64,000 nt of DNA, from the IMG/VR virus record IMGVR_UViG_3300037524_000649, one strand, 5' to 3'. Within the stretch, counting starts at the first letter, position 1, and each line of letters starts with the position of its first letter. The position numbers were made by a program, and so were the translations under genes. Positions 880-63,955 of the stretch are shown piece by piece. Origin of the DNA: a virus. The notes under the pieces were generated by a model, which saw only the letters and a list, made by a program, of their open reading frames with translations, was not told where the DNA came from and ran no database searches.

Positions 880-1196
880 CACTCGCTCCATTCCCAGTAC
901 CAGATGTTGCCGTCGCTCATCTCAGCCTCTTCGCCTTTCGGCAGGAGCGTCACGAGGAATTTCAGTTCTGCAATCGCATTGGCTTTTGTTTGTTCGCAGC
1001 CCCACGTCGTGTATGGAGATCCGTAGCAGTAGGTGTCCATGGTTTCGATCGCGACGGGACAGCCTATACAGTCGTCGGTCCAGAACAGGCCGCAGAGTGG
1101 GCAGTTGTTGATGCCGTCATCCATGCCGCTGTGGTAGGCGATGTCGTGCCACTTCTGGATAGAGCCTTTCAGGGCGATCAGTGTGGCTTTGTTCAT
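879..1196 (-). CDS. small Cys-rich phage protein (CPLC...CxGCP...C)
   Basis: ORF track. The Cys pattern suggests metal binding. Confidence 0.65.
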   Translation of the reverse strand: MNKATLIALKGSIQKWHDIAYHSGMDDGINNCPLCGLFWTDDCIGCPVAIETMDTYCYGSPYTTWGCEQTKANAIAELKFLVTLLPKGEEAEMSDGNIWYWEWSE

Positions 1197-1765: not shown

Positions 1766-1793
1766 AGCTTGGTACTGGGTGGGGTGGGGCTGC
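1766..1793 (-). promoter_or_regulatory. GCAGCCCC-box promoter (box-N14-CAAGCT)
   Basis: Intergenic, sense orientation, matches the genome-wide motif. Confidence 0.55.
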
Positions 1794-2977: not shown

Positions 2978-3004
2978 AGTTTGCCGTGGCGGTTTCGGGG
3001 CTGC
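2978..3004 (-). promoter_or_regulatory. GCAGCCCC-box promoter (box-N13-CAAACT)
   Basis: About 30 nt upstream of the exonuclease ATG at 2941. Confidence 0.6.
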
Positions 3005-5590: not shown

Positions 5591-5618
5591 GTTATGCCCC
5601 GGACGCGCCCGGGGCTGC
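5591..5618 (-). promoter_or_regulatory. GCAGCCCC-box promoter (box-N14-CATAAC)
   Basis: Intergenic, downstream of a terminator and upstream of the polymerase operon. The last base of the -10 hexamer deviates from consensus. Confidence 0.55.
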
Positions 5619-7149: not shown

Positions 7150-7150
7150 C

Positions 7151-7526: not shown

Positions 7527-7530
7527 GGAC

Positions 7531-7710
7531 CTAGTTGGTGAGCAGGGCGGCAACCATCGCCGCCAGCCCACCCACGATCGCCTTGACCGAAGCCTCGACG
7601 AAGAACGCGGGATCAAACCCGCCGAAAGCCACCAGGCCGAAGCCCAGCAGCCAGAGCGTGGTGCCGACCACCACAGCGAGCAACCCGCAGTGTGCAAGAA
7701 AGCTAGACAT
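7531..7710 (-). CDS. small membrane protein (two hydrophobic segments)
   Basis: GGAGG RBS and hydrophobic sequence. Confidence 0.65.
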   Translation of the reverse strand: MSSFLAHCGLLAVVVGTTLWLLGFGLVAFGGFDPAFFVEASVKAIVGGLAAMVAALLTN

Positions 7711-7721
7711 AACCACCTCCG

Positions 7722-8024: not shown

Positions 8025-8079
8025 GACTGTTACCTCGTACAAAGTGCAGAGCGCGGAAGGGCGCCTGCTTCGACCAAGA

Positions 8080-8094
8080 CTTCATGCCGAAGGC
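8080..8094 (-). repeat. 15-bp leader repeat GCCTTCGGCATGAAG, copy 2
   Basis: Identical to 7411..7425. Confidence 0.75.
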
Positions 8095-8243
8095 TCGACA
8101 ACGTAGCTAAGGGCACGACGGGGTTGGGGCGCGGGGCCCAGTCGGCGAGGTAAGCGATTGGCACTTCGGGCGGTGCGAAGTGAGTAGGAACGGGGCTACG
8201 TGAAAAGCACTGGGGTAGAGGAACAGTTGAAGTGGAAGTAGCA

Positions 8244-8275: not shown

Positions 8276-8302
8276 GCAGCCCCATGCGTTGATAGAGAAA
8301 GT
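8276..8302 (+). promoter_or_regulatory. GCAGCCCC-box promoter (box-N13-GAAAGT); predicted +1 is the A of the terS ATG (leaderless)
   Basis: The -10 T at 8302 places +1 at 8309. There is no SD upstream of the ATG. Confidence 0.65.
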
Positions 8303-9082: not shown

Positions 9083-11834
9083 GCCGTACTTCAATGGCGG
9101 CCGTATGGCGGTGTGCAACACCTGCGTCTCCGCGCGCTCTGGGGACGTCATGGCAGCCAAGCTGGAAGAGCGTCGGATCAAGAAGCTGGCCTCCGAAGAG
9201 CGCAAGAAGCTGAAGCAGGAAGCCCGGCTGCAGCGCAAGCGCGACCTCCGCAAGCGCAAGGTGCGCGAGGCGGAGAAGGCAAAGGAGGTTGCGAAGGAAG
9301 ACCGCCGTGCTTCGTTCCAAGTGGCTCGTGGCCGGCGCCGGGTGAATCTCGTAAAGCGCGAGTTGGCGGCGCGGACGTTGGCGCAGCGGCATCTCATGGC
9401 GTTCGTGATGCGACAGCACCGCGGCTACCAGGCCGGGCTGTTCCACCGCGACGTGTGCCGCCGGCTGGACAAGTTCGCCAAGGACGTGATCGCCGGCAAG
9501 AGCCCGCGGCTGATCCTCCAGGCGCCGCCACGCCACGGCAAACAGATCGCGGACGACACCCCGGTGCTGACCACAAAGGGGTGGACCACGCACGGAGCGC
9601 TGCGTACTGGGGACGAGGTGTTTGGCCCCGATGGCGTGCCCACGCAAGTCGTGGCCGTGGGCGAGCCAGCCCTCCAGAACTGCGAAGTGGAGTTCACGGA
9701 CGGGTCGGTTGTCCGTACCCACGAGAACCACGAGTGGACGGTCTACGATCGGTGTGGAGATTCGGGGTGGAGGACCGTCGAGACCAAATACCTGGAGCAG
9801 CGGACCCTGTGGTCGGGGCCGCGCGGCAAACGGGGCGGCAGGGCCGCCCTGCAGTTGCCACACGTTCACGCCCTTCAGTTGCCCGAGGCCGCCCTGCCGC
9901 TGGATCCCTACGTGCTCGGAGTTTGGCTCGGCGACGGGCGCTCCTGCAACGCCGACTTTTGCTGGCACGCCGACGACGCAGCCGTGGCCGTGGCGGTCAA
10001 CGAGGCGCAGCCGATAACTCGGCGCTGGGTACATCGCACCACGGGCGTGAACTACGGGTTCATGGCGGGGGTAAAGCCCATTTTGCGGCGGCTGGGGGTG
10101 CTGAACGCCAAGCACGTTCCGGCAGAGTACGAGCTGTCGAGCATCGAGCAGCGGTTGGCGCTTCTCGCTGGCCTGATCGATACCGACGGGCACGTAGAGC
10201 TTGGTACTCAGCGCGTGCGCATAGCGACCGTCAGCGACGTGCTGGCCAGCGGGATCGAGCGCCTGGTCCGCAGTCTCGGGTGGCGAGCCAACCGTTACAC
10301 GCAGCAGCCGGCGCTGTCGACCAGTGGCGTGCAGGGGCGGCATCCGGTGCACTACGTGTCATTTACGCCAGATCGCGCCATACCGACACGCCTGCCGCGC
10401 AAGCGCATCGTTGCCCGTGAGAGTTCACAGCGTCGCCTCGGCATCGCGGCGGTGCGCCGCGGTGCGCCGGCCATCGGTCGGTGCATTCAGGTCGCGCGCG
10501 CAGACGGGCTGTATCTGGTGGGGGAGCAGCTGATACCCACCCACAACTCGCTCCTGGCAAGCGTGTACTTTCCGGCGTGGTTCCTCGGCAACAACCCCGA
10601 CAAGGAGATCATCGCCACCAGTTACTCCGGCTCGCTGGCCCTGACGTTCAGCCGCAAGGTGCGCGAGCTGCTGCGCGAGCAGACGTATCAGGCGGTCTTC
10701 CCGCGCGCCGTACTGGACAAGGACAACCAGAACGCCGAGGGGTGGATGACGACCCGCAAGGGCGGGTACGTGCCGGCAGGTGTCGGCGGCGCCATCACCG
10801 GCAAGGGCGCCCACATCCTGGTGATCGACGACCCGCTGAAGAACGCCGAGGACGCGTCCTCGACGCTGATCAAGGACAGCATCTGGGAGTGGTACACGTC
10901 GACCGCGTACACGCGCTTGGCACCGGGTGGCGGGGTCATCGTCATTGCGACCCGGTGGGCTGAGGACGACCTCTCCGGTCGGCTCGAAGCACTGAGCGAG
11001 AGTGGCGAGGGGGACAAGTTCCAGATCATTAGATACCCCGCCATCGCCACCGAGGACGAGCCGTACCGCAAGGCTGGCGAGGCGCTGCACCCCGAGCGCT
11101 ACTCCGTCGAGCAGCTGCGCAAGATCGAGCGGGCCGTCGGCCCGTCGGTGTGGCAGGCGCTGTACCAGCAGCAGCCCATGCCCGACACGGGCAGCTACTT
11201 CACCAGGGACATGTTCCGCTGGTACACGGGCGCGGCGCCCGGCCGGCTGGCCGTCTACGCCGGGTGGGACCTGGCAATCGGCAAGGGGGACCGCAACGAC
11301 TTCACGGCCGGTGTGGTGGTCGGCATCGACCAGGACGACGGCATGTGGGTGCTCGACGTGCGGCACGGGCGGTGGGACAGCTTCGAGATCGTGGAGCAGA
11401 TGCTGGACGTCCAGCGCGTGTGGAAGCCCGAGGTCCACGGCATCGAGAAGAGTCAGGTGTCCATGGCCATCGGCCCGTACCTTGAGCAGCGCATGTACGA
11501 GGACAAGGCGTATGAGATGGTGGTGCGAGACTTGCCTCCGGGCCGTCGTGACAAGGAGCTGCGGGCACGCGCGATCCAGGGTCGCATGCGCCAGGGTCGT
11601 GTGCAGTTCCCCAAGGACAAGCACTGGGCCGACGGGATCTACGCTGAGATGCTCAAGTTCCCCAACGGGGCACACGACGACCGTGTCGATGCACTGGCTT
11701 GGATCGGACTGATGCTCCAGGAGATGAACGTGCCGCTGGAGCCGCGCGAGCCGGAGTACGCCAAGGGCTCGTGGAAAGAGAAGCTGGAGAAGCTCGTCAA
11801 CAACCCAACCAAGCGCGGCTCGATGGCCGCGTAG
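8892..11834 (+). CDS. terL: terminase large subunit precursor with intein and an N-terminal CxxC..CxxC extension
   Basis: Walker A PPRHGK|S split by the intein, Walker B LVIDD, RNase H-like nuclease (GWDLA, HDDRVDA). Start is uncertain (8820, 8889, 8892 or later). Confidence 0.92.
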   Translation: MATTDETETTETTETPTDTTTTTESTRPTIRANPQKGEWKYTEDHVPTPKTCRVCGTTYPRSGKPYFNGGRMAVCNTCVSARSGDVMAAKLEERRIKKLASEERKKLKQEARLQRKRDLRKRKVREAEKAKEVAKEDRRASFQVARGRRRVNLVKRELAARTLAQRHLMAFVMRQHRGYQAGLFHRDVCRRLDKFAKDVIAGKSPRLILQAPPRHGKQIADDTPVLTTKGWTTHGALRTGDEVFGPDGVPTQVVAVGEPALQNCEVEFTDGSVVRTHENHEWTVYDRCGDSGWRTVETKYLEQRTLWSGPRGKRGGRAALQLPHVHALQLPEAALPLDPYVLGVWLGDGRSCNADFCWHADDAAVAVAVNEAQPITRRWVHRTTGVNYGFMAGVKPILRRLGVLNAKHVPAEYELSSIEQRLALLAGLIDTDGHVELGTQRVRIATVSDVLASGIERLVRSLGWRANRYTQQPALSTSGVQGRHPVHYVSFTPDRAIPTRLPRKRIVARESSQRRLGIAAVRRGAPAIGRCIQVARADGLYLVGEQLIPTHNSLLASVYFPAWFLGNNPDKEIIATSYSGSLALTFSRKVRELLREQTYQAVFPRAVLDKDNQNAEGWMTTRKGGYVPAGVGGAITGKGAHILVIDDPLKNAEDASSTLIKDSIWEWYTSTAYTRLAPGGGVIVIATRWAEDDLSGRLEALSESGEGDKFQIIRYPAIATEDEPYRKAGEALHPERYSVEQLRKIERAVGPSVWQALYQQQPMPDTGSYFTRDMFRWYTGAAPGRLAVYAGWDLAIGKGDRNDFTAGVVVGIDQDDGMWVLDVRHGRWDSFEIVEQMLDVQRVWKPEVHGIEKSQVSMAIGPYLEQRMYEDKAYEMVVRDLPPGRRDKELRARAIQGRMRQGRVQFPKDKHWADGIYAEMLKFPNGAHDDRVDALAWIGLMLQEMNVPLEPREPEYAKGSWKEKLEKLVNNPTKRGSMAA
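9543..10547 (+). mobile_element. class 3 intein (Gln1, WCT motif) with LAGLIDADG homing endonuclease, 335 aa
   Basis: Starts QIADDTPV and ends IPTHN|S. Block B THENHEW, block F GRCIQV, LAGLIDADG motifs VLGVWLGDG and LLAGLIDTDG. Confidence 0.92.
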
Positions 11835-12210: not shown

Positions 12211-12237
12211 GCAGCCCCGGCAAACACCACAGAGAAT
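12211..12237 (+). promoter_or_regulatory. GCAGCCCC-box promoter (box-N13-GAGAAT); predicted +1 is the ATG at 12244 (leaderless)
   Basis: Intergenic, with canonical -7 to +1 spacing onto the ATG. Confidence 0.65.
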
Positions 12238-12658: not shown

Positions 12659-13123
12659 ATGAGCTACAAGTACAACGCTACCCTGCCCCTGGCCATCAAG
12701 CGGCTGCCCAACGCGGCCGACATCGACGTGCCGGTGTACGCCACGGACGGCGCTGCCGGCTTCGACCTGAGTGCTGCGCTCGACGCGCCGATCCAGTTGT
12801 TCCCCGGTGATCGTGCCTTGGTGCCGACGGGCTTCGCCTTCGCGGTGCCGCCTGGGTACGAGGTGCAGATCCGGCCGCGGAGCGGCGCAGCGCTGCATCG
12901 GGGGCTTACCGTCCTCAATACCCCGGGCACGATCGATAGCGACTACCGCGGCGAGGTCAAGGTGCTGCTGTTCAACGCCGGCTTCGACGCGATCGAGGTG
13001 ACGACCGGGGATCGCATAGCGCAAGGCGTCCTGTGCCCAGTACTCAGGGCTAGGTTCGAGGTCGTGCCGGATCTCAACGAGACGGCGCGTGGTGATGGCG
13101 GGTTCGGCAGCACTGGAGCGTGA
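12659..13123 (+). CDS. dut: trimeric dUTPase
   Basis: Motifs [27 protein letters not shown] and [10 protein letters not shown]. Confidence 0.96.
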
Positions 13124-16432: not shown

Positions 16433-16452
16433 AAGGGGGCGAAAGCCCCCTT
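16433..16452 (+). terminator. hairpin AAGGGGGC-GAAA-GCCCCCTT, probable terminator
   Basis: GNRA-loop stem followed by CTTATT, after the scaffold gene. Confidence 0.6.
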
Positions 16453-16468: not shown

Positions 16469-16495
16469 GCAGCCCCGGAATTAAGCACATAGGAT
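16469..16495 (+). promoter_or_regulatory. GCAGCCCC-box promoter (box-N13-TAGGAT) for the capsid gene
   Basis: Intergenic. Shares CATAGGATC with the copy at 59528..59555. Confidence 0.7.
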
Positions 16496-16627
16496 CTGAA
16501 TATCGCTACCGAGAGCGGATACTCGGCGCGCCGAGCAGCGTCACGGGCTCGCAGCACACACGCCGGAGCGGCGAACAGCTCAACAGGTAATCGTTGATCT
16601 AACTGCCATCCAAGGAGGGATTACCCC

Positions 16628-17716
16628 GTGGCAACTACCAATTTCGGCGCGCTGCTTTCCGAGCAGCGGCTCGTCTGGGCCAAGGACCTGTGGAAGCAGG
16701 CCCGCAACATCTCGTTCATCAACAAGTTCGCTTCTGGCGGCATCAACAGCATGGTGACTCGCGTTACCGAGCTGACGAAGTCGGAGAAGGGCACCCGCGC
16801 GATCATGACGCTGGTTGCCGACCTCGAAGGCGACGGCGTGGTTGGCGACAACCAGCTGGAGGGCAACGAGGAGGCGATCAAGGCGTACGACGAGACGATC
16901 ACCATCGATCAGCTCCGGCACGCCAACCGCAACAAGGGTCGCATGGCTGATCAGGCCACCGTCATCAAGTTCCGCGAGACGTCCAAGGACGTGCTGGCGT
17001 ACTGGCTGGCGGACCGCATGGATCAGCTGGCGTTCCAGACCCTCGGCGGCATCGCTTACTCGCTGAAGCCTAACGGCGTGGCGCGTGATGCCAGCTCGCA
17101 GCTGCCGTCGCTCGACTTTGCGGCCGACGTCACTGCGCCTTCGACCAACCGCTACCTCGTGTGGGATGAGACCGGTTTCGGCGTGAACACCGCCAACACC
17201 TCTCTCGTTGCGGCGGACACCCCGACGTACGAGATGCTCGTGCTCGCGAAGGCTGCGGCCAAGGAGCGGTTCATCCGCGGCGTGCGGTCCACGTCGGATG
17301 GTGAGGAGTACTACCACGTCTTCATGACGCCGCAGGGCCTCGCCAAGCTGAAGCTGGATGCTGATTATCTGGCCAACCTGCGCAACGCTGGCGCGCGCGA
17401 CATGAAGAACCCGCTCTTCTCGGGTGGTCAGGTCACGCTCGACGGTCTCGTGATCCACGAGTTCCGCCACGTCCCGCGTTCGGCTACTTGGGGTGCCGGT
17501 ACCGTGGCTGGGCAGCGCGTGCTGCTCTGCGGTGCGCAGGCCCTCGGCATGGCCGACCTCGGTGCGCCGGAGTGGGACGAGAAGGAGTTCGACTACGGCA
17601 ACAGCCAGGGTATCGCTATCGCGAAGATCTTTGGCCTGCTGAAGCCGCGCTTCCACTCGCAGTACCACGGCACGGTTGAGGACTTCGGCGTCCTCGCCAT
17701 CGACACTGCCATCTAA
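16628..17716 (+). CDS. major capsid protein (N4-gp56 / DUF4043-like)
   Basis: AAGGAGG RBS, GDNQLEGNEE and DQLRHA motifs, extreme codon bias. Confidence 0.9.
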   Translation: MATTNFGALLSEQRLVWAKDLWKQARNISFINKFASGGINSMVTRVTELTKSEKGTRAIMTLVADLEGDGVVGDNQLEGNEEAIKAYDETITIDQLRHANRNKGRMADQATVIKFRETSKDVLAYWLADRMDQLAFQTLGGIAYSLKPNGVARDASSQLPSLDFAADVTAPSTNRYLVWDETGFGVNTANTSLVAADTPTYEMLVLAKAAAKERFIRGVRSTSDGEEYYHVFMTPQGLAKLKLDADYLANLRNAGARDMKNPLFSGGQVTLDGLVIHEFRHVPRSATWGAGTVAGQRVLLCGAQALGMADLGAPEWDEKEFDYGNSQGIAIAKIFGLLKPRFHSQYHGTVEDFGVLAIDTAI

Positions 17717-21829: not shown

Positions 21830-23767
21830 GTGCGCAGCTTTTGGGGCGGTGACCCGCACTACAGCAACGTAATACTGCACCTGCCGCTTCAGGAGCACAC
21901 GCGCGACGTGTCTCCGCGGCGGTGTCCAGTCACGCAGACGGGCGGCGGCGTGTTTTCGGGCGCTGCGTATCGTCCTCCGGCCCTGAACGACGCCAGGGGG
22001 TCGTACCTCTACGACCCGACGACCGATTACCTGACTGTCACTGCTCCCTCGATCGGTTTCGCCCCGTGGACTATAGAGTTCTGGGCGAAGTCGCCTAGTT
22101 CTGCCGGCACGACCGGTATCAATTTCGACTGCCGCGCTGGTGATAACGATTACTATGGGTTCGCGTTGTATTTTCGCAGTACTGGTAAGTACGCTATCGG
22201 CGGCGACAACCCGTTTGCAGCAACCGAAAGCTCGCTTAGCTGGGCTACCGATACCTGGTATCACGTTGTTGCAGTACAGCGCGGCAGCAATATCTTCATC
22301 TACATCAACGGCAAGCTGGAGATAACTCGTGCCTGGAGCTACGAGTTACAACGGACGAGCTGGAGAATTGGCGCGCAGCACGACGCGGCGGAGTCCAGCA
22401 ACGGGGCTCTTGCAGACTTACGCGTTACTAAGGGCATCGCTCGCTACACGGCTGACTTTGTCCCGCCGACGTCTCTCTATCCTACCCACGGCGTTTCGAT
22501 CCTAAGCCGTTTCGTCCCCCTGCCGAGGAACAAGCGCCCGCCGATGCTGATTCGGCGTGCGTACCGCGGGGATCAGTACTTCGATCGCGTCGACGCGCAG
22601 CTTCCGCTCCGCGCCAATTTCATCGACGAGAGCAGATTGCTTACCGCGGTGACGGTCAACGGCGATGCGAAGATCGTCAACGACGCGGCGTATTTCGATG
22701 GTTCTGGCGACACCCTAACGGGCATACCTTTCTCTGCCTCAGCGGCGGAGTACTTCACGCTAGAGCTGTGGCACAAGCTCACGACGTCGGGTGACATATA
22801 CCAGGATCCGTTCAACAAGTACCCTCACGGCATGCGGTACGGCAACGCCGGGTTCGGGTACAAGCTGCAGGTGTCGCTCAACTTCAACTACGCCCCCGAG
22901 ATCTGCTCCTGCGCCGTTACGCAGCAGGATAACGTGGACAAGTGGGTGCACCTCGCTTTCGTGTGTGGCCCGCAGGGGTTAGGGTTGTTCGTAGGCGGCG
23001 TGCAGCAGATGCTCGGCCTCGGGGTCAACCCGAGTAGCTATCCGTATCTGTGGGTAGGATCTGCGGTAGTCAATCTGGGCGCTTTCTCTGGCACTGCCAC
23101 GGTGGCAGGCAACTCCTACACTGGATACGTCAGGGACGTTCGTTATACACGCGGCGTGGCGCGTTATCTGACGAACTTCACGCCCCCGCCAAACCTGCCC
23201 CCGCGCGGAGTGTACAGTGCCCCGCGCGTGCTGGCTGCGCCTGAGTACCCGCCGACCACGCTGGACGTCATCACCGGTACGTGCGACGCACTTGAGTCTC
23301 ACGACACGGCTGCGGTAGCCGCGCTGTTGCGCGCCACGGGCATATTGACCGCCACTGATGCGGTGGATCTCGGTGCGCTTGCGGGGCTCTTGGCCGGCTT
23401 TGTTGCACTTGAGGGCGGCGACGTCATGGCCGCCAGCGGCAAGCTCATTGCTGCTGGTAACCTGTCGGCGACGACCGCAGCCGATCTGATCAGCGCGGTT
23501 GGCAAGCTGACCATCCGCGGCGTGCTCAACACCACGGAATTCGATCGAGACGAGCTGGTCGCTCTCGGCAGCATTGTGCCCGCGCTGTATCACGTCGTGC
23601 ACACCAGCGTGGTCCTTAGCAGCCCCGTTACGACTCTGGCACTCTCAAGCCCGGAATCCACGTTAGGGGGCTTTCCGCCTGTGGTCGAGACGGATACCAC
23701 GTACGACGCGCCGGCCACGTTGGGGGTCTTCCCACCCGTCGTGGTCAGCGACATCACTATGTCTTGA
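21830..23767 (+). CDS. tail fibre / receptor-binding protein with two LamG (ConA-like) domains
   Basis: Two repeated units, each starting GD.xy..V...LPL, containing W/FTxExW and WxHxA, and ending RxTxGxARY..xF.PP. Confidence 0.75.
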   Translation: MRSFWGGDPHYSNVILHLPLQEHTRDVSPRRCPVTQTGGGVFSGAAYRPPALNDARGSYLYDPTTDYLTVTAPSIGFAPWTIEFWAKSPSSAGTTGINFDCRAGDNDYYGFALYFRSTGKYAIGGDNPFAATESSLSWATDTWYHVVAVQRGSNIFIYINGKLEITRAWSYELQRTSWRIGAQHDAAESSNGALADLRVTKGIARYTADFVPPTSLYPTHGVSILSRFVPLPRNKRPPMLIRRAYRGDQYFDRVDAQLPLRANFIDESRLLTAVTVNGDAKIVNDAAYFDGSGDTLTGIPFSASAAEYFTLELWHKLTTSGDIYQDPFNKYPHGMRYGNAGFGYKLQVSLNFNYAPEICSCAVTQQDNVDKWVHLAFVCGPQGLGLFVGGVQQMLGLGVNPSSYPYLWVGSAVVNLGAFSGTATVAGNSYTGYVRDVRYTRGVARYLTNFTPPPNLPPRGVYSAPRVLAAPEYPPTTLDVITGTCDALESHDTAAVAALLRATGILTATDAVDLGALAGLLAGFVALEGGDVMAASGKLIAAGNLSATTAADLISAVGKLTIRGVLNTTEFDRDELVALGSIVPALYHVVHTSVVLSSPVTTLALSSPESTLGGFPPVVETDTTYDAPATLGVFPPVVVSDITMS

Positions 23768-25218: not shown

Positions 25219-26856
25219 ATGGCCATGCTCAAATTCCTGAACTTCCGCGGCGAGCGCCCCATACTGAGCCCGCACAAGCTGGACGCGCTGACTGCGCAGG
25301 TTGCCCAGTCGTGCCGGTTCGAGGGTGGCATCCTCAAGGCCATCCGTACCAACACGACGGTACAAGCAGCACCTGGCGGTTCAGCGGTCGACACCATCTT
25401 CTACTATCCGCCCAACGATGTTTGGCTGACGTGGACTTCCGACGTCGACGTGCAGCGGTCCATGATCGCCAATGACAGCCACAACCGCGTTTACTGGACT
25501 GGTGACGGAGCGCCCAAGTTCGCCACGGCGACGCTGATCGGTTCGACTACTGGGCCTTTCCCGAACGACTCGCTAACGCTCGGGATACCGGCACCAACGC
25601 TGACGCCCGACGTGGTCGTGTCTGGCACGCCTACGGATCCGCTGGCGCTGCCCGATTCCAGGTACTACATCTTCACGTACGTCGATGTGTACGGTTCCGA
25701 GGGCCCGCCGTCTCCGGTGAGCGCCATGGTGCAACCGATCGACGACCAGATAGTGACGGTGTCCAACATGGGTACGGTCGCTCCGGTGGGCGACTACGCC
25801 ATCACCAAGAAGCGCATCTACCGCACCAACACGGGTTCGCAGGGAGCCATCTACCAGCTCGTCGCCGAGATCGACCTCGCCACTTCGAGCTACGATGATT
25901 CGACCATGGCTGAGTACCTCGGCGATGAGCTGTCGACGGCTGAGTACGACATGCCCGACCCGAACATGTACGGGCTGCTGGCGCACCCTGGCGGGTACTA
26001 CGTCGCGTTTGCCGGCACTGCCATTTACATGTCTGAGCCTGGGTATCCGTATGCCTGGCCGGTCAAGTACCAGATAGGTGTCGACTACAACATCGTCGGC
26101 GGCGCCGTGTTCGGCGACACTGTCGCGATCCTGACCACAGGTACTCCGTACCTGATGGCTGGCAACCACCCGTCCGCCACCTCGCTACGGCGCATCGAGG
26201 AGAACCAGGCGTGCTTGGCCAAGCGGGGCATCGTCGACCTGGGTTTCGCGGTCTGCTACCCGAGCCCCGACGGACTGATGATGCTGTCCAACCAGGGCAT
26301 CAAGAACGTCACCGAGCAGGTGTTTACCCGCGACCAGTGGATCGCGCTGAAGCCGAGTTCGTTCGTCGCCACGATGTGGGAGGGCAAGTACCTGTGCTCG
26401 TACGACACGGGTACCGTCTCTGGTACGTTCGCCATCAACCCGAGCAACCCGGAGAGCGGCGTCGTGTACTACGACACCGTCTTCGGGGCTGCGCACAACT
26501 ACCTGATCGACGACTACCTGTACCTGCGCGTCGGCGCCAACATCGTCTCCTGGGACTCGACCGGCGTGTTCGCGCCGTACACTTGGCGATCGGGCAAGCT
26601 CCAGGCGCCGCGGCCAATCAACTTCGGCGTGGCTCAGGTGCGGGCAAATACGTATCCGAGCGGGGACACCACACCGCTGCGCATGACGCTGTACGCCGAC
26701 GGCGTGCGGCGGTGGAGTGGCTTCATCTTCGACGACAAGCCGTTCCGCCTGCCAGCGGGCTATCGCGCATCGCAGTGGGAGATCGAACTGGTCGGAGCGG
26801 CCGAGGTGTACGAACTTCTCCTCGGCGAAACCTCGCAGGACTTGAAGGGCGCCTGA
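25219..26856 (+). CDS. tail nozzle / DNA stabilisation protein (beta-propeller, podophage tail tubular B-like)
   Basis: 545 aa, FRGERP N-terminus, IYMSEPGYPYAWP repeat, position before the ejection genes. Confidence 0.7.
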   Translation: MAMLKFLNFRGERPILSPHKLDALTAQVAQSCRFEGGILKAIRTNTTVQAAPGGSAVDTIFYYPPNDVWLTWTSDVDVQRSMIANDSHNRVYWTGDGAPKFATATLIGSTTGPFPNDSLTLGIPAPTLTPDVVVSGTPTDPLALPDSRYYIFTYVDVYGSEGPPSPVSAMVQPIDDQIVTVSNMGTVAPVGDYAITKKRIYRTNTGSQGAIYQLVAEIDLATSSYDDSTMAEYLGDELSTAEYDMPDPNMYGLLAHPGGYYVAFAGTAIYMSEPGYPYAWPVKYQIGVDYNIVGGAVFGDTVAILTTGTPYLMAGNHPSATSLRRIEENQACLAKRGIVDLGFAVCYPSPDGLMMLSNQGIKNVTEQVFTRDQWIALKPSSFVATMWEGKYLCSYDTGTVSGTFAINPSNPESGVVYYDTVFGAAHNYLIDDYLYLRVGANIVSWDSTGVFAPYTWRSGKLQAPRPINFGVAQVRANTYPSGDTTPLRMTLYADGVRRWSGFIFDDKPFRLPAGYRASQWEIELVGAAEVYELLLGETSQDLKGA

Positions 26857-27297: not shown

Positions 27298-27324
27298 GCA
27301 GCCCCCGGCGCCAGGCACGAAAAT
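27298..27324 (+). promoter_or_regulatory. GCAGCCCC-box promoter (box-N13-GAAAAT)
   Basis: Intergenic, upstream of the ejection-protein operon. Confidence 0.65.
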
Positions 27325-34023: not shown

Positions 34024-34217
34024 GGATCCAACGCGATCGACTGGAGCAACTCGAACGCGGCGGCAAAGCGCGCGTTGCGAAGCCGCCGTCCGCAGTGGCA
34101 GCCCCAGTCGCGCGCAAAGATACTCAGCAGGCGCCAGTGGAAAAGAAGAAGTGGCGGTTCGACGTGAACCGCGACTACGACGGCTACATCACTAACGTGG
34201 TCGCCACGGAATTGTAA
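34020..34217 (+). CDS. small hypothetical protein (...KKWRFDVNRDYDGYITNVVATEL)
   Basis: ATGA overlap with the upstream gene. Confidence 0.6.
   Translation: MRIQRDRLEQLERGGKARVAKPPSAVAAPVARKDTQQAPVEKKKWRFDVNRDYDGYITNVVATEL
34098..34124 (+). promoter_or_regulatory. internal GCAGCCCC-box promoter (box-N13-GATACT)
   Basis: Sense orientation, about 110 nt upstream of the next gene. Confidence 0.55.
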
Positions 34218-46796: not shown

Positions 46797-46799
46797 ACC

Positions 46800-46825
46800 C
46801 AGCCCCCGAGGGCCCCGGGTATTGT
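46800..46825 (+). promoter_or_regulatory. variant-box promoter (CCAGCCCC-N13-TATTGT) for the holin operon
   Basis: Intergenic, 7 of 8 box bases, strong -10-like hexamer. Confidence 0.55.
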
Positions 46826-51257: not shown

Positions 51258-51284
51258 ATGGTGCCGATGACGTGTTGGGGCTGC
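51258..51284 (-). promoter_or_regulatory. GCAGCCCC-box promoter (box-N13-CACCAT); predicted +1 is the ATG at 51251 (leaderless)
   Basis: Intergenic, canonical spacing onto the ATG. Confidence 0.65.
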
Positions 51285-51307: not shown

Positions 51308-51577
51308 TTAGTTTTGTCGCACGGTGAATTCTGGCCGGAGGCTGTCTTGGATGGAGTGAAGTAGGTTGTGAATCGAGTCGGTGTGGTGGGTTGATTTGCG
51401 GCGGATGGCGAAGCGCTGACGGGTCTTGGCGATGTACCAGCCCGTCAGCGCGTCTTCTAGGGTCTTGTGGTAGCTGAGATAGATTACTAATCCCTGTTTG
51501 TATACTCGTACCCGCCAGCGCTGCCGCGCCGCTTCGAAAAAGATGCCTTTCGGGAGGATCTTCGGCGACTCATCCAT
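51308..51577 (-). CDS. stand-alone AP2-like DNA-binding protein
   Basis: LPKGIFF...RWRVRVYKQG..IYLSYHKTLEDA matches the AP2 three-strand-plus-helix pattern. Confidence 0.7.
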   Translation of the reverse strand: MDESPKILPKGIFFEAARQRWRVRVYKQGLVIYLSYHKTLEDALTGWYIAKTRQRFAIRRKSTHHTDSIHNLLHSIQDSLRPEFTVRQN

Positions 51578-51589: not shown

Positions 51590-52141
51590 TTAGAGCCTGG
51601 TGCAGGACCGAGCAACAGAGCGAGAAGAACGATGGTGATGACTATCAGCAACAAGACATCCATTTTGTATGGCCTCAAGTGTCATGGTTTTGTGCTGTTG
51701 CCAGAGCGGGCTGGGGAGATTCAGCGCGACCATTGCCAAGTCGAGCATGGTTAGGCGGGCACCAGCGAGGAAGGGGCCGACACGGACGAGGTCGGCCGTT
51801 AGTGCGTGGAGGACTGGGGGCTTTGTTTCGACTTGGTTGTCGAAGAGCGTGGAGATGATTTGCTCGGTTGCCATGCGCACCATGGCGCGGCGTTCGGGTG
51901 TGTCGAGACAGAGCGGTGGTTCGGGGTACTGGTCTTCGAGGTATGCGAGGATGTGGTGTATGCCGTAGATCGACAGGCCGCGGTCGACGATCGCGGGTTT
52001 CTTGGGTGTGCGGAATGCGGCGAAGGCGCCTGTGACTTTGCGGCCTTTGGCTTGGCAGACGAGTTCGAGGAAGTTGAACGTGGCTTCGTCACTGGTTGCA
52101 ATGACGATGGGGCCGAGGACATCGTTTGCTGCGTGATCCAT
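51590..52141 (-). CDS. degenerate GST-fold protein, SspA-like
   Basis: PAIVDRGLSIY...ILAYLEDQYPEPPL...PERRAMVR and PFLAGARLTMLD resemble GST N- and C-domains. Confidence 0.7.
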   Translation of the reverse strand: MDHAANDVLGPIVIATSDEATFNFLELVCQAKGRKVTGAFAAFRTPKKPAIVDRGLSIYGIHHILAYLEDQYPEPPLCLDTPERRAMVRMATEQIISTLFDNQVETKPPVLHALTADLVRVGPFLAGARLTMLDLAMVALNLPSPLWQQHKTMTLEAIQNGCLVADSHHHRSSRSVARSCTRL

Positions 52142-52485: not shown

Positions 52486-52560
52486 CGGCTGATCTTGCGC
52501 GCGGAACAGGGTTTTGTCAAGGATCTGCGGCTTTTTGGGGGTTTTCGTTCTGCTTTGCGC

Positions 52561-56138: not shown

Positions 56139-56836
56139 GCGACGTTCTCTTGAAAGCGCTGTTGCTTCCATTGGGCCCCGTGGACATTGGCGGTGACGTG
56201 TTTCCCCGCGGTGGCTGTGCCTGTGCAGAGGCGGCAGTTGTTGCACTGAACTCCGTGCGTTTGGTTGGGGCACTGAACTTCGTTCGGGAGAATTGGGGCG
56301 TTGCTGTGTTTGACGCGGAAAGTTCGCCATCCAGCTTCCTGTGCTTCAGCGGCTTCGGCCTCTGTGTCTACAGAGGCCATGCAATAGGCCCGCAAGTCTT
56401 GATCGCAAGTTCGCCAGAGATGGGTGTACCCCAAGTGAAAGTCGAACTTGTTCGTTATACGGTGCCAAAAGCCGGTTGGGGCTGCACCGGGATCTCCGTA
56501 GGCACCGAGGCGTAGTCCGCGGTGCGCAGCGATAAAGCGCAGCGGGCTGTCGATCCAGGCGTCGTTTACTTCTTGCTTGGCCGCGGTCCATGCGGCTTTG
56601 GGCCCTTGGAAAGTTAGGACGTAGCAGCTGCCGTTTCGGTGCGGGCAGGTTCCGCAGATGCTGTGGTCTTCCTTGCGGCGGACTGCTTCAGATGGGTCGA
56701 GGTCTTTGCGAAGGATGTACGCCTGTACCATCGGGCCGGTTTTCTTGTTGGTCGACAGGGTGTCTACCCCTGTTAGCGAAACGACAATGGGCGCGCCGTC
56801 GATTAACGACGGCCCGCTATAGGCGAGCATCGGCAT
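56135..56836 (-). CDS. Cys-rich, radical-SAM-like phage protein of unknown function (DUF7227/Gp88-like)
   Basis: CGTCPH...CY, LRLGAYGD, GYTH, ASVD and C-terminal CP....CNNCRLC. Confidence 0.7.
   Translation of the reverse strand: MPMLAYSGPSLIDGAPIVVSLTGVDTLSTNKKTGPMVQAYILRKDLDPSEAVRRKEDHSICGTCPHRNGSCYVLTFQGPKAAWTAAKQEVNDAWIDSPLRFIAAHRGLRLGAYGDPGAAPTGFWHRITNKFDFHLGYTHLWRTCDQDLRAYCMASVDTEAEAAEAQEAGWRTFRVKHSNAPILPNEVQCPNQTHGVQCNNCRLCTGTATAGKHVTANVHGAQWKQQRFQENVA
56459..56485 (-). promoter_or_regulatory. possible internal GCAGCCCC-box promoter (box-N13-CACCGT)
   Basis: Sense orientation inside a CDS. Could be chance. Confidence 0.35.
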
Positions 56837-57176: not shown

Positions 57177-59478
57177 AGGCGAGGCTCACTATGTTGGTTT
57201 GGTCGAACAGGTCGTTTACGGCTTCGGGGTGTTCTGTTCGCCAAGTGATCAGGAACCCGCGTTCGATTTTGCCGTTTACCCGGTGGGGCTGTATGTCGAG
57301 CTTGTGTCGCTTGCACATCGAGGTGAACTTGTTCGGTGATATGCGAGTGTTCTGCAGATAGCTGTAGACTGCAGCGGCTTCGTCACGGCTCACGGCGAGC
57401 TGCCGATTGATGGCCGCACTCCATCGGCGTATGGCGCGCTCGTAGTCGAGGTATGCGTTGTCAGGTGTGATGGGTGGCTTGTCGCGGAGGAACTGGATGA
57501 AGAAGTCCAGGTCTCCGTCAGCAAGGCTGCGGAAGAAGCGATCGACGCTGTTCTCCGCGGCGGCGATCATCAGGCTTCGCGCTTCGTTGAGGAGGATGCG
57601 TTGTGCCTTGTGCTCGTCGACGGTGTAGTCGCGCAGGAAAGCCGCGAAGGAATTTAATTCCTGCGCGATCATGTCCAGATCGCTTTGCTCGATGTCGATC
57701 GGGGTCTGTTGTGCCGGAGCGACGTTGAAGCGCCGGTCCCTGTCGTCCAGGGGATATGGATCCGCGTGGTTGGTGGCGATGATGAGGTTGTTGTACAGGG
57801 TGCGCTGCACCGGGTTGCGGCGCATAGCACGGATCATCACCGTGTCTTCTGTGATGAGGTTTTTGATTTTGTTCAGCAGGCGGCTCTCGCCTCGCGAGTC
57901 GTCGAGGTGGAACTCATCGATCCACTGGATGAGGCACTCTTCGAGGTTGCCGTTGAACGTGTCGTCCATGCTGGTGGTGGTGTACTCCTGCACATACCTC
58001 GGCCCCAGTAAGGGCGCGAGGATGTGCGTGAGTAGAATGCCTTTGCCGGTTCCGTTGGTGCCGTGAAAGATCCAGGCGGTCTTGGTCTTGCGCCGGGTCT
58101 GGAAGATGAAGGCCAGCCAGTTGAGGAAGTAGTTAGTGGTCTCGGTGTCGTCGCCGCAGACGGAGCGTAGGACGCGGCGGATCGTCTTTGGAACCGTAGT
58201 ACTCGGTGTCTCGTTGTCGCGTAGGTATGACGTGGCGACGAAGCGGTTGGCCCACTTGGCGTCTATGTCGACTACGCGCAGGTTGGTTGGGTCGAAGCTG
58301 TAGGTCCAATCCGGGATCGGATCGGGCATGAGCGCGTTGTAATTGGCTGCGAAGTCGCGCAGCTTCTCTTTCGAGGACGTAGGACTCAGTACCAAGCTCT
58401 GCGTCGACTCGGTGTAGAGGCCGTTGTAATAGGTGTCCGTCATCCAGTCGCGGAAGATGACTGGGATCGTGTTCTCGGCACTCTGCTCCGGGCTTAGCTG
58501 TTTGTAGAAGTCCGGTGCGATGTCGATCAGGCGAACGATCGGCTCGCCTTTGAAGTTGTAGAGAAGCTCGGGCTTGTCGTCTGGGAAGAAGTAGGCCCAG
58601 GAGTCGCCGCCGTTCAGGTTGAGGTACGTGTAGCCGCGCGCTTGGCGGACGCCAGTCACTGTTGCGCGGTCTGGGTTGAGGAGGATCTCCTCCCCATTGA
58701 GGATCCGGTATTTGCTCTTGCGTTTCTTGAGCCCCATCGTCTTGCGTAAGTCCTCGACCAGGGCATCGGTCTGGTCGCGGATGATCTGGGGCGAGGTGGC
58801 GAAGTTGATGGTCGCTAGCTCGTTGCTCTTAGCACGCAGTACGAAGCGCTCGGGGATCGGGTCTTCGAGACCGAGAAGGTAGGGCGGCGCGATGTAGATC
58901 AGCTTGTCGTTCTGGCACGTCGTGACGTCGAGCGGCCAGCGGAGGGCGTGTCCGCTCGCAGTCAGGGTCAGCTGATCGCGCAGGGCGGGGATGGTCAGGT
59001 TGCAGTGCATCAGCCACGACTTGATGATCGGTGCCGGGACGGCGTCTGCCAGGCGGATGAAGATGTGCCCGCGCAGGCCGGGGGCGCCCTTGACGCCGGC
59101 ACTCGTGGAGTGCTGGAAGATGTAGCTGGTGTCTGCCAGTGAGGGGTGGAGCTGGGTCAGGAAGTCGTCGATGCTAGCGAAGCCGCTGGCAAAGTCGAGG
59201 TCCAGGACGAGGTAGTCGGTGACTCCGGTGGCGATGGTCTGGCTAGCTCGGCTCTCGTTCACGATGGGGCGGGCGAGGGTGCCCTTGAGCAGGCAGGCGC
59301 CTGCTTCGGCCTGGGCACGCAGCACGTCGTACGCAGTACTCAGGTCTGGGCAGTCCACCTGGGTGCTGGTGAACTTGGAGACCATTGGGTAGGAGCTGAT
59401 TTCGAGCTGTTTCGAGTCTGGATCTTGGACGATCGTCTTGGTTAGCCGGACGTCCGCGGCCAAGAAAGTCAGGAGCAT
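57166..59478 (-). CDS. primase-polymerase / SF3 (D5-like) helicase fusion
   Basis: N-terminal LDLD and H.F motifs of AEP type, Walker A HGTNGTGKG, Walker B WIDE, IATN and DRRF. Alternative start 59511. Confidence 0.88.
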   Translation of the reverse strand: MLLTFLAADVRLTKTIVQDPDSKQLEISSYPMVSKFTSTQVDCPDLSTAYDVLRAQAEAGACLLKGTLARPIVNESRASQTIATGVTDYLVLDLDFASGFASIDDFLTQLHPSLADTSYIFQHSTSAGVKGAPGLRGHIFIRLADAVPAPIIKSWLMHCNLTIPALRDQLTLTASGHALRWPLDVTTCQNDKLIYIAPPYLLGLEDPIPERFVLRAKSNELATINFATSPQIIRDQTDALVEDLRKTMGLKKRKSKYRILNGEEILLNPDRATVTGVRQARGYTYLNLNGGDSWAYFFPDDKPELLYNFKGEPIVRLIDIAPDFYKQLSPEQSAENTIPVIFRDWMTDTYYNGLYTESTQSLVLSPTSSKEKLRDFAANYNALMPDPIPDWTYSFDPTNLRVVDIDAKWANRFVATSYLRDNETPSTTVPKTIRRVLRSVCGDDTETTNYFLNWLAFIFQTRRKTKTAWIFHGTNGTGKGILLTHILAPLLGPRYVQEYTTTSMDDTFNGNLEECLIQWIDEFHLDDSRGESRLLNKIKNLITEDTVMIRAMRRNPVQRTLYNNLIIATNHADPYPLDDRDRRFNVAPAQQTPIDIEQSDLDMIAQELNSFAAFLRDYTVDEHKAQRILLNEARSLMIAAAENSVDRFFRSLADGDLDFFIQFLRDKPPITPDNAYLDYERAIRRWSAAINRQLAVSRDEAAAVYSYLQNTRISPNKFTSMCKRHKLDIQPHRVNGKIERGFLITWRTEHPEAVNDLFDQTNIVSLAYAS

Positions 59479-59527: not shown

Positions 59528-59555
59528 ATCCTATGCCTGGCGGTTCTGGGGCTGC
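59528..59555 (-). promoter_or_regulatory. GCAGCCCC-box promoter (box-N14-TAGGAT) for primase-helicase
   Basis: Intergenic. The 17-mer CCCTCGCAGCCCCAGAA is identical to the copy at 63944..63960. Confidence 0.7.
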
Positions 59556-60643: not shown

Positions 60644-62817
60644 GAGAACGGATCCTGCTGGGTATCCAGCTGTTTGAGATACTGCATGAAGGCGAAGGTC
60701 GAGAACACAGTGGGGAAGTCGTACTGGTATCTCGGTCGGGTAATGTAGATGTCGAGATCTGCTTCGATCAGCGGGTAGTGCAACAAGGTGTCGGGAATCT
60801 GCTCCAGGACGCTGTCGAAGTAGGGGTCGTGCTCGATGGGCTCGACAGCAAGTACGGCAGCTTCGTTGAATAACGAGTAGTATTTCCACAGCTCTCTTGC
60901 GTGCGCTTCGGCCTCTCGTACAGCAGCACACAAGTCGCGTAGGGCCAGTGGCTGCTTGTAGTAGTAGTTGGTCGCTTCAAGTTCTGTTGCATACATGAGC
61001 ATGTAGCGCACGTTAATGGACTGTAGGAACGCTTGCGCGGCCTTTGCTCGCGCGGGGTTGAGGTAGGTGTCGGTGAGAGCAATAAAGCGCTCGCGCAAGA
61101 CGTCGTCTCGTGACGGGCACTGAATGTCCGCGAGAGTCTTCTTGTGGTGCTCGGGGATCACGACGACTCGCATGTTGTTGAGCAGAAGCGGGTCTGCTAG
61201 CTGCTCTATGAGGTAGTTCACGTGTTTCGAAGAGTTCTTGTACTTCACGATGTAGCACGTATTTGCCAGCGGCTGATTCAGCGGGATCTGTTCGAGGTCT
61301 ACGCAAAGCTGGCCGTCGGTGTGCAGGGTATACACGTCTAACGGGGCGAAGCGGGTGGTCTTGCGTGGACCAGCGGAACCCGACGAGTTCTTAGCAGTCT
61401 GCTGCGGAGCTGGCGGGGCTGCGAGCGACGAGAACGGAATGATGGTTGCTCGGTCGTCAAACAGCAGGCGGATGTTGACCAGCTGTGCCGGGGTCACGTC
61501 CTTCACGACGATCGCAGCGTCTGCGTTGCCGAGGATCGCGTTTCGGTTGTGCTTCAGTGTGGCTATGAAACGGGTGTTCGGTATCGACTTGTCGACGTGG
61601 ATGATGGTCGGGGCCTTGAAGTTGTTCAGCCCAGGCGACCATTCGTAGTCTCTGGTGAAGGTTAGCTTTGCAGCGCGACCGCGGCCGTTATAGAAGGAAC
61701 TGGTCAGGTCAGCCGTAAGCCCATACTGCCAGGCGATTGCGTGGTACAGCGGCTTCCCGCGCCAAGTGAGGTCTTCGCTTGGTTCCCGCGAGGCGATGAA
61801 TGCGAAGGAAGAGACGCGGTTTAGCGCTCTGCGGGTCAGGTACGCGTCGAACATGCACTCGCACCGATCGAGTTGGTCTTGCACGTCGTCGCGAATGCGG
61901 TCGGCGGTAGTTATGAGCAGCTCGACGATCTTTGCAATCGACTGCTTGTCGTAGCTCAGGCTCTCCCGACTCGGTGTGATGTCTACGCTACCGATTGGTG
62001 CGAAGAGGCACAGGCCGGAGGTAGCGAACAAGCTCCTGACTTTGCGGAGCGCCTCATCATCCTGCTGCCGCACCAGGGCTTCTTCTATGAGCGCCAGGTT
62101 CAGTGGGTACGCGATGGGGCCCATCAGGACGTGCACAGCGCGGTAGCCGCCATTTGCACGGATTCCGTAGTAGTCGGTTTTGGTGAGCCAGGTCAGCGCG
62201 CTGATTGGGGTGTTGATGATCGGCCGGGGCTCGAACCAGTAATAGGTCGTGGTGGCGGCGTTGATGAACGTCGATCTGTCGTTCGCGTGCACCGCCATGG
62301 AGATCTCAACGCCGGTCTCGTTGCCGCAGGGTTCGCAAGTGACCGGGCCGTTGATGGCCGGCGTACCCTGCGGGTCGAGGAAGGCGATGTAGGTCTTCTT
62401 CTCGCCGGCGTACCAGGAGGTGACCTGGAACGTGTCGGCATATGCGAGTGGCGTCTTGCTCCCCAGGCCCAGGCCGCCAATGTCGTCGTTGTTGTCGTTC
62501 TTCGAGGAGTCACCGTAGCTGTTGTAGCGAGCCATGATGAACTCTTCGCTCATTCCCGTGCCGTAGTCACGAATGCGCAGCGATGAGTCGAGCGACGTTG
62601 GGAGGTGTACGTGAAATGGTTGATCAGCCTTGCCCGCCGCGCGGTGAGAGTCCACGGCATTGGCGCCCAGCTCTCGGAGGATGGCGACGGGTTTGTTGGA
62701 GTACAGCTGGTTGGAGAAGATCTGGAAGAACTTTGCCGACGCAGTGAACGTGAAGCTGCTGGTCTTGCTGGTGTCGAGGTTGGTCGTGAGATTGTTGCTA
62801 CGGTGAACGAGCTGCAT
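60640..62817 (-). CDS. rIIA: rIIA-like protein (N-terminal GHKL ATPase)
   Basis: LYSNKPVAILRELGANAVDSH, IRDYGTG, GGLGLGSKTP and VDITPSRESLSY. Adjacent to rIIB. Confidence 0.92.
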   Translation of the reverse strand: MQLVHRSNNLTTNLDTSKTSSFTFTASAKFFQIFSNQLYSNKPVAILRELGANAVDSHRAAGKADQPFHVHLPTSLDSSLRIRDYGTGMSEEFIMARYNSYGDSSKNDNNDDIGGLGLGSKTPLAYADTFQVTSWYAGEKKTYIAFLDPQGTPAINGPVTCEPCGNETGVEISMAVHANDRSTFINAATTTYYWFEPRPIINTPISALTWLTKTDYYGIRANGGYRAVHVLMGPIAYPLNLALIEEALVRQQDDEALRKVRSLFATSGLCLFAPIGSVDITPSRESLSYDKQSIAKIVELLITTADRIRDDVQDQLDRCECMFDAYLTRRALNRVSSFAFIASREPSEDLTWRGKPLYHAIAWQYGLTADLTSSFYNGRGRAAKLTFTRDYEWSPGLNNFKAPTIIHVDKSIPNTRFIATLKHNRNAILGNADAAIVVKDVTPAQLVNIRLLFDDRATIIPFSSLAAPPAPQQTAKNSSGSAGPRKTTRFAPLDVYTLHTDGQLCVDLEQIPLNQPLANTCYIVKYKNSSKHVNYLIEQLADPLLLNNMRVVVIPEHHKKTLADIQCPSRDDVLRERFIALTDTYLNPARAKAAQAFLQSINVRYMLMYATELEATNYYYKQPLALRDLCAAVREAEAHARELWKYYSLFNEAAVLAVEPIEHDPYFDSVLEQIPDTLLHYPLIEADLDIYITRPRYQYDFPTVFSTFAFMQYLKQLDTQQDPFS
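61396..61422 (-). promoter_or_regulatory. possible internal GCAGCCCC-box promoter in rIIA (box-N13-CAGACT)
   Basis: TCGCAGCCCC context, in a low-complexity linker, upstream of rIIB. Confidence 0.45.
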
Positions 62818-63927: not shown

Positions 63928-63955
63928 AGTATCCGACGGTGGCTTCTGGGGCTGC
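63928..63955 (-). promoter_or_regulatory. GCAGCCCC-box promoter (box-N14-GATACT)
   Basis: Intergenic. The -10 hexamer lies inside the GTCGGAT...ATCCGAC inverted repeat. Confidence 0.65.

Follow-up and report, generated by a model that had tools for sequence, protein, structure and literature searches.

The DNA analysed here is a 64,000-nucleotide stretch (the window) of IMG/VR virus record IMGVR_UViG_3300037524_000649, a phage genome of 62% GC from wetland metagenomes that forms part of a contig of about 64,996 bp. Directly upstream of its capsid gene lies a putative promoter at 16469-16495 (+), composed of an eight-nucleotide box, GCAGCCCC (16469-16476), a 13-nt spacer and the hexamer TAGGAT (16490-16495), and copies of the same box recur throughout the genome. 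This promoter follows just after a terminator hairpin (16433-16452), its predicted +1 is at about 16502, and the capsid gene (16628-17716) begins after a leader of 126 nt. Genes are directed leftward in 1-8100, rightward in 8300-48100 and leftward again in 48300-64000. The rightward arm encodes terS (Pfam Terminase_2 match), an intein-bearing terL, the portal, capsid, tail and ejection proteins, a virion protein of 2400 amino acids (aa) and the lysis genes, and genes for replication and nucleotide metabolism (DNA polymerase A, primase, helicase, rIIA/rIIB) occupy both leftward arms. Its closest relatives among cultured phages are the Pseudomonas phages KPP25 and phiR18 (genus Kochitakasuvirus) and Aeromonas phage phiA008, with a primase identity of only ~37%, and Megablast of the window against cultured phages returned no match. 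The relatives of the phage point to beta- and gammaproteobacteria as probable hosts.

Sixteen exact copies of GCAGCCCC are present in the window, as opposed to 4.24 +/- 1.98 in shuffled sequences, and none of 100 shuffles reached this number. Fourteen copies are oriented in the sense direction of local transcription and eleven are located in intergenic DNA, which makes up 10.8% of the window; GCAGCCCC is the top intergenic-enriched sense 8-mer (11/14, binomial p = 2e-9). An nAnnnT hexamer was found downstream of 13 of the 14 sense boxes, at a spacing of 13 nt at ten sites and of 14 nt at three, and a scan of all 8-mers for the pattern X-N13/14-nAnnnT ranked GCAGCCCC first (13/16, p = 7e-14). 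By comparison, a -10-like hexamer occurred at this spacing in only 6 of 98 one-mismatch boxes, which corresponds to the chance rate. The initial annotation had described this family as 15 copies plus one variant, 13 of them sense; the family stands, while the count had to be corrected to 16 exact copies, 14 of them sense, including one at 23619 (+) that had been missed. Its further statements, that most copies are intergenic, that the hexamer lies 13-14 nt downstream except at 5611 (CATAAC) and that the antisense copies at 996 and 26485 lack it, were all borne out, and the shuffled background and the exhaustive scan of intergenic and strand enrichment point the same way. A chance or compositional origin in a GC-rich genome has next to no probability: at 62% GC, 8-mers rich in G and C do occur frequently, and two copies, the antisense ones inside genes (996..1003 (+) and 26485..26492 (-)), look like chance and were taken as such, but the shuffling result, the intergenic enrichment, the association with the hexamer, the low rate among one-mismatch boxes and the conservation of the box at orthologous sites, described below, all argue against it.

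With the hexamer taken as -12 to -7, the box spans about -33/-34 to -26/-27. No TTGACA-like -35 element was detected 16-18 bp upstream of the hexamers, where the sequence reads nnGCAG. The hexamers themselves match TATAAT at a mean of ~3.2 of six positions, a TG extension is present in only two of 13, and consensus scans of the window for canonical sigma70 promoters gave no excess over chance. The box is not a hairpin element in the window save at 5611, which is also the sole sense copy without a proper hexamer. At this deviant site (5591..5618 (-)), which precedes gene 5241-5582 and the DNA polymerase gene, CATAAC lacks the T, and a hairpin of -20.8 kcal/mol joins the CCCC of the box to a GGGG further downstream. 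Elsewhere, terminator hairpins lie directly upstream of the boxes at 16469 and 59548, forming compact terminator-promoter units.

Transcription is predicted to start about 7 nt after the T of the hexamer. An ATG is found exactly at this distance at 8309 (terS), 12244 and 51251, and all three starts lack a Shine-Dalgarno sequence, unlike other genes; the earlier proposal that +1 coincides three times with the A of an ATG thus holds in its geometry. The corresponding promoters are 8276..8302 (+; box, 13 nt, GAAAGT), 12211..12237 (+; box, 13 nt, GAGAAT), which precedes an open reading frame (ORF) of 99 aa, and 51258..51284 (-; box 51277-51284, 13 nt, CACCAT), and each would give a leaderless transcript. 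When 51 box-hexamer sites from the window and six related genomes or loci were pooled, an ORF of 50 codons or more was seen to begin with an ATG 6-9 nt past the T at ten sites (exactly 7 nt past it at seven), compared with a background of 3.5% for all nAnnnT hexamers, so that the relatives lend support to the leaderless starts. The terS site is orthologous in one relative (G002), where the box is followed by 15 nt, TACAAT, 6 nt and ATG.

Metatranscriptome contigs of the same wetland series match the window at 100% identity, and 15 of the 21 matching pieces fall on the capsid transcript. The leftmost contig edges, 16518 and 16524, are 16 and 22 nt past the predicted +1, and no contig spans 15643-16517; these edges fit the predicted start but weakly, because contigs cannot define transcript ends. 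Relatives (loci L004-L163) have gaps of 130-200 nt between the capsid promoter and the start codon, similar to the leader at 16502-16627 in the window, and a marine subgroup has long sequence blocks in common within these gaps. A search for a consensus structure of the long capsid-gene leaders returned no consensus pairs, the alignment being too divergent.

Conservation of the motif was analyzed in about 100 distinct capsid-gene relatives (53-63% identity). The box-spacer-hexamer arrangement is found again in many of these relatives and, with few exceptions, on the coding strand. Across whole contigs, (G)CAGCCCC is the top k-mer for this pattern in G001 (7/11, p = 3e-7) and CAGCCCC in G002 (11/26, p = 4e-7), the latter being a prophage of Allochromatium humboldtianum DSM 21881 (NZ_JABZEO010000001.1; 100% identity over 21 kb). 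A weaker form of the architecture was observed in four further contigs (GC 42-67%). In G003 and G004 (51% GC), (A/G)CAGCCCC and the hexamer are kept at orthologous sites while the spacer sequence diverges, and in contigs of 43% GC the spacer that follows CAGCCCC is 15 nt long. G001 has the box, 13 nt and TAGGGT before its primase gene, as at the 59548 site of the window. In 97 distinct relatives, the site orthologous to the capsid promoter was of the box type in ten, all among the closest relatives (60-63% capsid identity), carried TTGAC-N16-18-nAnnnT in 36 and had neither in 51. Since other relatives carry a TTGAC promoter at this position, the box appears to stand in for the -35 element of a host sigma70-type promoter.

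Some of these loci are arranged very compactly. In L008/L084, L013, G003 (64170) and G004 (66365), the CCCC of the box doubles as the descending arm of the terminator hairpin of the preceding gene, and in sigma70-type relatives such a hairpin holds TTGACA in its loop. A role of the box as a terminator arm was considered and rejected as a general explanation; it holds before the capsid promoter of some relatives, and in the window only at 5611.

No Pfam match to RNA polymerase, sigma factor, MotA or AsiA was found in the ~90 ORFs of the window, in agreement with the earlier remark that no RNA polymerase or sigma gene is visible. Of the hexamer, only A(-11) and T(-7) are kept, which is a hallmark of group 1-3 sigma factors. 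The hexamers are weak and mostly without TG extension, and should therefore need an activator. Given the lack of a phage polymerase or sigma factor among the Pfam matches, the weak hexamers and the retention of these two positions, the most economical reading, and the most likely one, is that the enzyme is the host sigma70 holoenzyme plus a phage factor. Alternatively, box and hexamer might be read directly by a highly diverged sigma factor of the phage or by a non-canonical RNA polymerase that it encodes, for instance a domain of the 2400-aa virion protein. An invariant 8-bp element with a spaced downstream element does resemble alternative-sigma promoters, many ORFs are without Pfam match and the giant virion protein is conserved in the family. 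We nevertheless consider this decidedly unlikely: neither a sigma nor an RNA polymerase domain was recovered by Pfam in the ~90 ORFs, the positions retained in the hexamer are the signature of sigma factors such as the host's, and relatives use plain TTGAC/-10 promoters at the same site. The 2400-aa protein was also considered as an N4-like or crAss-like virion RNA polymerase and rejected as unsupported, having no polymerase match in Pfam or PDB, no D-x-D-x-D motif (a pattern that would include DxDGD) and no T7-type motif B, only HExxH.

Two adjacent genes on the left-directed strand are candidates for the phage factor: an SspA-like (GST-fold) gene at 51590..52141 (-; 183 aa), whose product is a candidate RNA polymerase-binding co-activator, and a stand-alone AP2-domain gene at 51308..51577 (-; 89 aa), encoding a candidate box-binding protein; the leaderless promoter at 51258..51284 follows directly after the latter. 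The top solved relatives of the SspA-like protein in phmmer searches were SspA and MglA. A profile built from five phage homologues returned, as its top eight PDB matches, six SspA chains, the SspA homologue RegF and one GST-related protein (best E = 1.2e-12). The homology runs across both the N- and C-terminal GST domains, and the phage proteins are shorter (140-185 aa) than cellular SspA (~212 aa). In E. coli SspA, a surface P-H-P motif is needed for activity. A P-x-P motif is invariant in the five phage proteins, reading PHP in G001, G003 and G004, PEP in the window and PYP in G002.

The AP2 protein of the window has no Pfam match of its own at E <= 0.05, and its membership of the family therefore rests on transitive homology: its profile gathered 541 homologues, and 18 of the 50 best match Pfam AP2 (PF00847; best E = 4e-8). 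The AP2 profiles A1 and A3 matched no solved structure by sequence, and a word-index homologue search with the protein returned only itself. Its AlphaFold2 model (pLDDT 86) has a beta-beta-beta-alpha fold with strands at residues 12-15, 20-27 and 30-37 and a helix at 40-56, and the best Foldseek matches in PDB were the DNA-bound plant AP2 domains of WRI1, TEM1 and AtERF1 (prob 0.90-0.99, weak E-values). The strands are Arg/Trp-rich, as is characteristic of AP2 domains, and one of the form R-W/Y-R-V-R is conserved. The SspA-like identity is confirmed at the level of homology, and that of the AP2 protein is supported by transitive homology and fold.

Two other proteins of the window were evaluated as possible factors and set aside. 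For the first, an early-arm protein of 308 aa (5775-6701), no relatives could be detected and the model was poor. The second, a conserved protein of 221 aa (52597-53262), is Pam3 gp34-like, lies beside a gp33-like/Gp157-like gene and probably belongs to a recombination module.

In each of the ten contexts analyzed, three of which were chosen by AP2 similarity alone, the AP2 gene directly follows the SspA-like gene. Moreover, the pair is present in seven of seven box-enriched genomes and absent from six without enrichment, including the complete KPP25, G011 and G012. Compared with the window, where 13 of 16 boxes have the hexamer, pattern and control counts were 8/1, 12/1, 4/2, 4/0, 6/2 and 6/0 in the six pair-bearing relatives, and 1/0, 0/1, 0/1, 1/1, 1/1 and, for KPP25, 3/1 in the genomes without the pair. 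This distribution bears on the notion that a host activator or an alternative host sigma factor reads the box, with the phage pair serving host takeover or anti-defence. Host SspA-dependent phage promoters do exist in P1, and the probable hosts belong to the beta- and gammaproteobacteria, groups with SspA. Still, box enrichment tracks the phage pair, and the same box is common to phages that span 42-67% GC and stem from samples of wetland, marine and other origin, which makes one common host factor unlikely; we give such a host reader little chance.

Our favoured interpretation, held with modest confidence, is that the elements form a phage promoter class in which the box replaces the -35 of a host sigma70 promoter and is read by the AP2 and SspA-like proteins. 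In this mechanism, GCAGCCCC would act as the upstream promoter element, coupled to a weak sigma70-type -10 located 13-14 nt further on, and would take the place of the -35 hexamer as the anchoring contact for the host sigma70 holoenzyme. The 89-aa AP2 protein would bind the asymmetric 8-bp box as a monomer, and an asymmetric GC-rich site of this length suits one AP2 domain. The SspA-like protein would bridge the AP2 protein to sigma region 4 and RNA polymerase, and transcription would then begin ~7 nt after the hexamer, three times on the A of an ATG, yielding leaderless mRNAs. As to how the factors might be made first, a TTGACA-17 nt-CAAGAT element at 52487..52515 (-) is a candidate host-dependent early promoter upstream of the operon formed by ORF 52142-52485 and the SspA-like and AP2 genes. 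No other intergenic, sense-oriented element of the window combines TTG and no more than one mismatch to TTGACA with a -10-like hexamer, and, as the only good promoter of this kind precedes the operon of the pair, host polymerase could make the factors first.

Several observations weigh against this interpretation. The co-occurrence counts ignore shared ancestry and come from about three sub-lineages, and G003 and G004 carry the pair but only four sites each. In G002, G004 and L220 the box, not a TTGACA promoter, precedes the operon of the pair, which would imply autoregulation and leaves first synthesis unexplained. The SspA-like protein of the window has PEP where SspA has PHP, and its AlphaFold model is poor (pLDDT 47, 5-row alignment); a prediction of the complex with the AP2 protein scored 0.25 relative to a mark of 0.32, which is evidence neither way. 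The metatranscriptome consists of low-depth contigs that are unable to define 5' ends. Finally, the known phage AP2 proteins, the CasPRs, are repressors.

The last point leads to the possibility that the box is a repressor operator, at which the AP2 protein or another phage protein shuts promoters fired by host polymerase alone, as part of lysogeny or timing. An asymmetric box oriented with transcription and mostly intergenic is reminiscent of stoperators, the lineage includes temperate members (the G002 prophage, and L220 with integrase and excisionase), and characterised phage AP2 proteins repress transcription. On the other hand, promoters with nnGCAG in place of a usable -35 and with weak -10 hexamers, mostly without TG, should be nearly silent unaided, the consensus TTGAC at the same position in relatives speaks for the box as a source of promoter strength, co-activation would suit a partner of the SspA type, and stoperators are not known to keep a fixed distance to a -10. 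We therefore regard repression through the box as unlikely, and activation by the pair as the probable mode of action.

Among known systems, the T4 middle promoters provide the closest architectural parallel. Here, a MotA box centred near -30 replaces the -35 and a sigma70-type -10 lies ~12-14 bp downstream, and two small phage proteins, one binding DNA and the other sigma region 4, redirect host polymerase. The box of the window is likewise situated near -30 and in the place of the -35, but it is GC-rich (GCAGCCCC) and unrelated in sequence to the AT-rich T4 box. Its candidate readers have AP2 and GST/SspA folds with no match to MotA or AsiA by Pfam, and the promoter class serves replication and structural genes, not a middle class only. 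As no MotA or AsiA homologue was found by Pfam in any ORF, the comparison with T4 is one of analogy only.

The late promoters of P1 combine a -10 with a phage-specific upstream element in place of the -35 and likewise involve an SspA-family protein. Their upstream element is a 9-bp inverted repeat near -22, in contrast to the asymmetric box of the window, which lies near -30 and 13-14 nt from the hexamer. In P1, SspA is a co-activator between RNA polymerase and the DNA-binding protein Lpa (PMC1891329), whereas the phage of the window encodes its own, shortened SspA-like protein and the partner would be an AP2 protein, not Lpa; no Lpa-like match was noted in the Pfam scans of the window. In Francisella, SspA-family proteins on the sigma70 holoenzyme dock the small sequence-specific DNA-binding activator PigR (PMC1891329, PMC4382096). 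MglA of this MglA-SspA/PigR system is among the solved relatives of the phage SspA-like protein, but the system controls a cellular virulence regulon and PigR is not an AP2 protein.

Furthermore, the box resembles the stoperators of cluster A mycobacteriophages, which are short asymmetric sites present in many copies and in one orientation relative to transcription. Those sites bind the immunity repressor and block elongation with no known fixed link to a -10, in contrast to a box that lies 13-14 nt from a -10 with ATG at +1. CasPRs, the phage AP2 proteins known to act on transcription, do so via short GC-rich motifs; they carry a CapR zinc domain and target cas genes of Bacillota hosts, whereas the protein of the window is a bare AP2 domain and the relatives of its phage point to proteobacterial hosts.

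Host-type promoters in which an activator box takes over from the -35 have been described before; the novelty lies in this particular box, in its conservation throughout the clade, in leaderless starts that are predicted systematically and in the candidate pair. In the library searched, we found no paper describing the box, its conservation across the clade, the leaderless starts or the SspA-like/AP2 reader pair. We tentatively put forward a broader proposal, which we hold to be possible although doubtful: in temperate and lytic podophages related to KPP25, a shortened, phage-encoded SspA homologue may dock on host sigma70-RNA polymerase, present a bare AP2 protein that reads GCAGCCCC near -30 and thereby re-aim the host enzyme to ~15 promoters per genome, many of them leaderless. 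To the extent of the literature searched, this would constitute the first bacterial or phage AP2 promoter activator, the first phage-encoded SspA and an independent case of sigma appropriation. Phage promoters with activator boxes are known from only a few model phages, T4 and P1 among them, and here a new box and a candidate pair are found in a widespread environmental clade. If the pair reads the box, AP2 domains, famed in plants and apicomplexans, would also be promoter activators in the bacterial world, many orphan phage SspA-like and AP2 genes would gain a function, and engineering could draw on a promoter switch of 8 bp that is compact and portable. Precise predictions of start sites follow from the conserved leaderless starts, and, since G002 is a prophage in the cultured strain A. 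humboldtianum DSM 21881, the idea is directly testable.

The earlier placement of the promoter class on both arms was upheld, with boxes before terS, the capsid gene, the primase gene, the DNA polymerase region and the lysis genes. Overall, the promoter interpretation of the initial annotation is supported in every part that could be addressed computationally. The remaining rightward sites begin with the newly recognized copy at 23619..23645 (+; box, 13 nt, CACTCT preceded by TGn), which lies within the 3' end of gene 21830-23767 and 125 nt upstream of gene 23777. The promoter at 27298..27324 (+; box, 13 nt, GAAAAT) is intergenic, with gene 27350 starting 19 nt on, and that at 34098..34124 (+; box, 13 nt, GATACT) is upstream of gene 34232. 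For the variant CCAGCCCC, placed at 46800 (+) in the initial annotation, TATTGT at a 13-nt spacing was verified and the start was revised to 46799; the site (46799..46825) precedes the lysis cassette (46891-48079), one of whose products is a holin.

Leftward promoters of the right-hand arm include 59528..59555 (-; box, 14 nt, TAGGAT), located after a terminator hairpin and upstream of the primase gene (57166-59478), 63928..63955 (-; box, 14 nt, GATACT), upstream of small genes leading into rIIA/rIIB, and 56459..56485 (-; box, 13 nt, CACCGT preceded by TGn), after which comes a conserved ORF of ~100 aa that ends at 56135. A sense copy inside rIIA (61396..61422 (-); box, 13 nt, CAGACT) is possibly an internal promoter and is the least certain in function. 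A candidate variant, ACAGCCCC (57285), with CAAAAT after 13 nt (57266..57292 (-)), is found at the 3' end of the primase gene, upstream of gene 56970-57176. On the left-hand arm, the promoter at 2978..3004 (-; box, 13 nt, CAAACT) precedes the exonuclease gene 2381-2941, and that at 1766..1793 (-; box, 14 nt, CAAGCT) lies upstream of gene 1519-1734 at the edge of an origin-like region.

This origin-like region (1814-2370) is non-coding. It contains tandem heptamers of the GTACTCG/GTGCTCA type at 1814-1909, nine copies of GTTACGAT/ATCGTAAC in both orientations between 1945 and 2364, and duplicated AT-rich 'TTGATTTATAA' blocks. A short heptamer run resembling that of the region occurs at 62847-62886, upstream of rIIA. 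The rIIA-like (725 aa) and rIIB-like (321 aa) genes, at 59678-62817 (-), were identified by PHROG matches and are carried by a 65-kb podophage of the KPP25 type.

The operon of the pair opens with a 114-aa ORF (52142-52485 (-)), which shows by eye a PD-(D/E)XK-like 'GVPD...EYK' pattern and has no Pfam match. It precedes the SspA-like gene in the window, G001, G002 and L220, and its frame continues without a stop as far as 51799, within the SspA-like gene, which is read in a different frame. Temperate relatives occur in the clade: G002 is a prophage, and in L220 an integrase and an excisionase lie beside the SspA-like/AP2 module. In the window, a DUF4224 (excisionase-like) gene is located at 48336-48635 (-), where two arms converge (Pfam E = 1e-13).

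Additional features of the phage concern nucleotide metabolism and virion proteins. The segment 49239-50937 encodes a MazZ-like dATP/dGTP diphosphohydrolase N-domain (50545-50937), a dCMP deaminase (49403-49849) and a 55-aa mini-protein corresponding to the C-terminal glycyl-radical part of NrdD (49239-49406); a dUTPase gene (12659-13123) lies between terL and the portal gene, and no PurZ was detected in the nucleotide-metabolism set of the window. TerL (8889-11834; 981 aa) contains a LAGLIDADG/homing-endonuclease insert at about residues 410-482, ahead of the Terminase_6N ATPase domain (557-776, Pfam), and is therefore regarded as intein-bearing; its PHROG matches fall in two stretches. A probable ejection protein (32320-34023) carries an SNase (staphylococcal-nuclease) domain at its N-terminus (Pfam E = 5e-4). 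The 2400-aa virion protein (39594-46796) has a HELGH (HExxH) motif near residue 1537, and its counterparts comprise 2348 aa in G001 and 2828 aa in G002; only the C-terminal 400-500 residues are common to the giant proteins of KPP25, phiR18 and phiA008.

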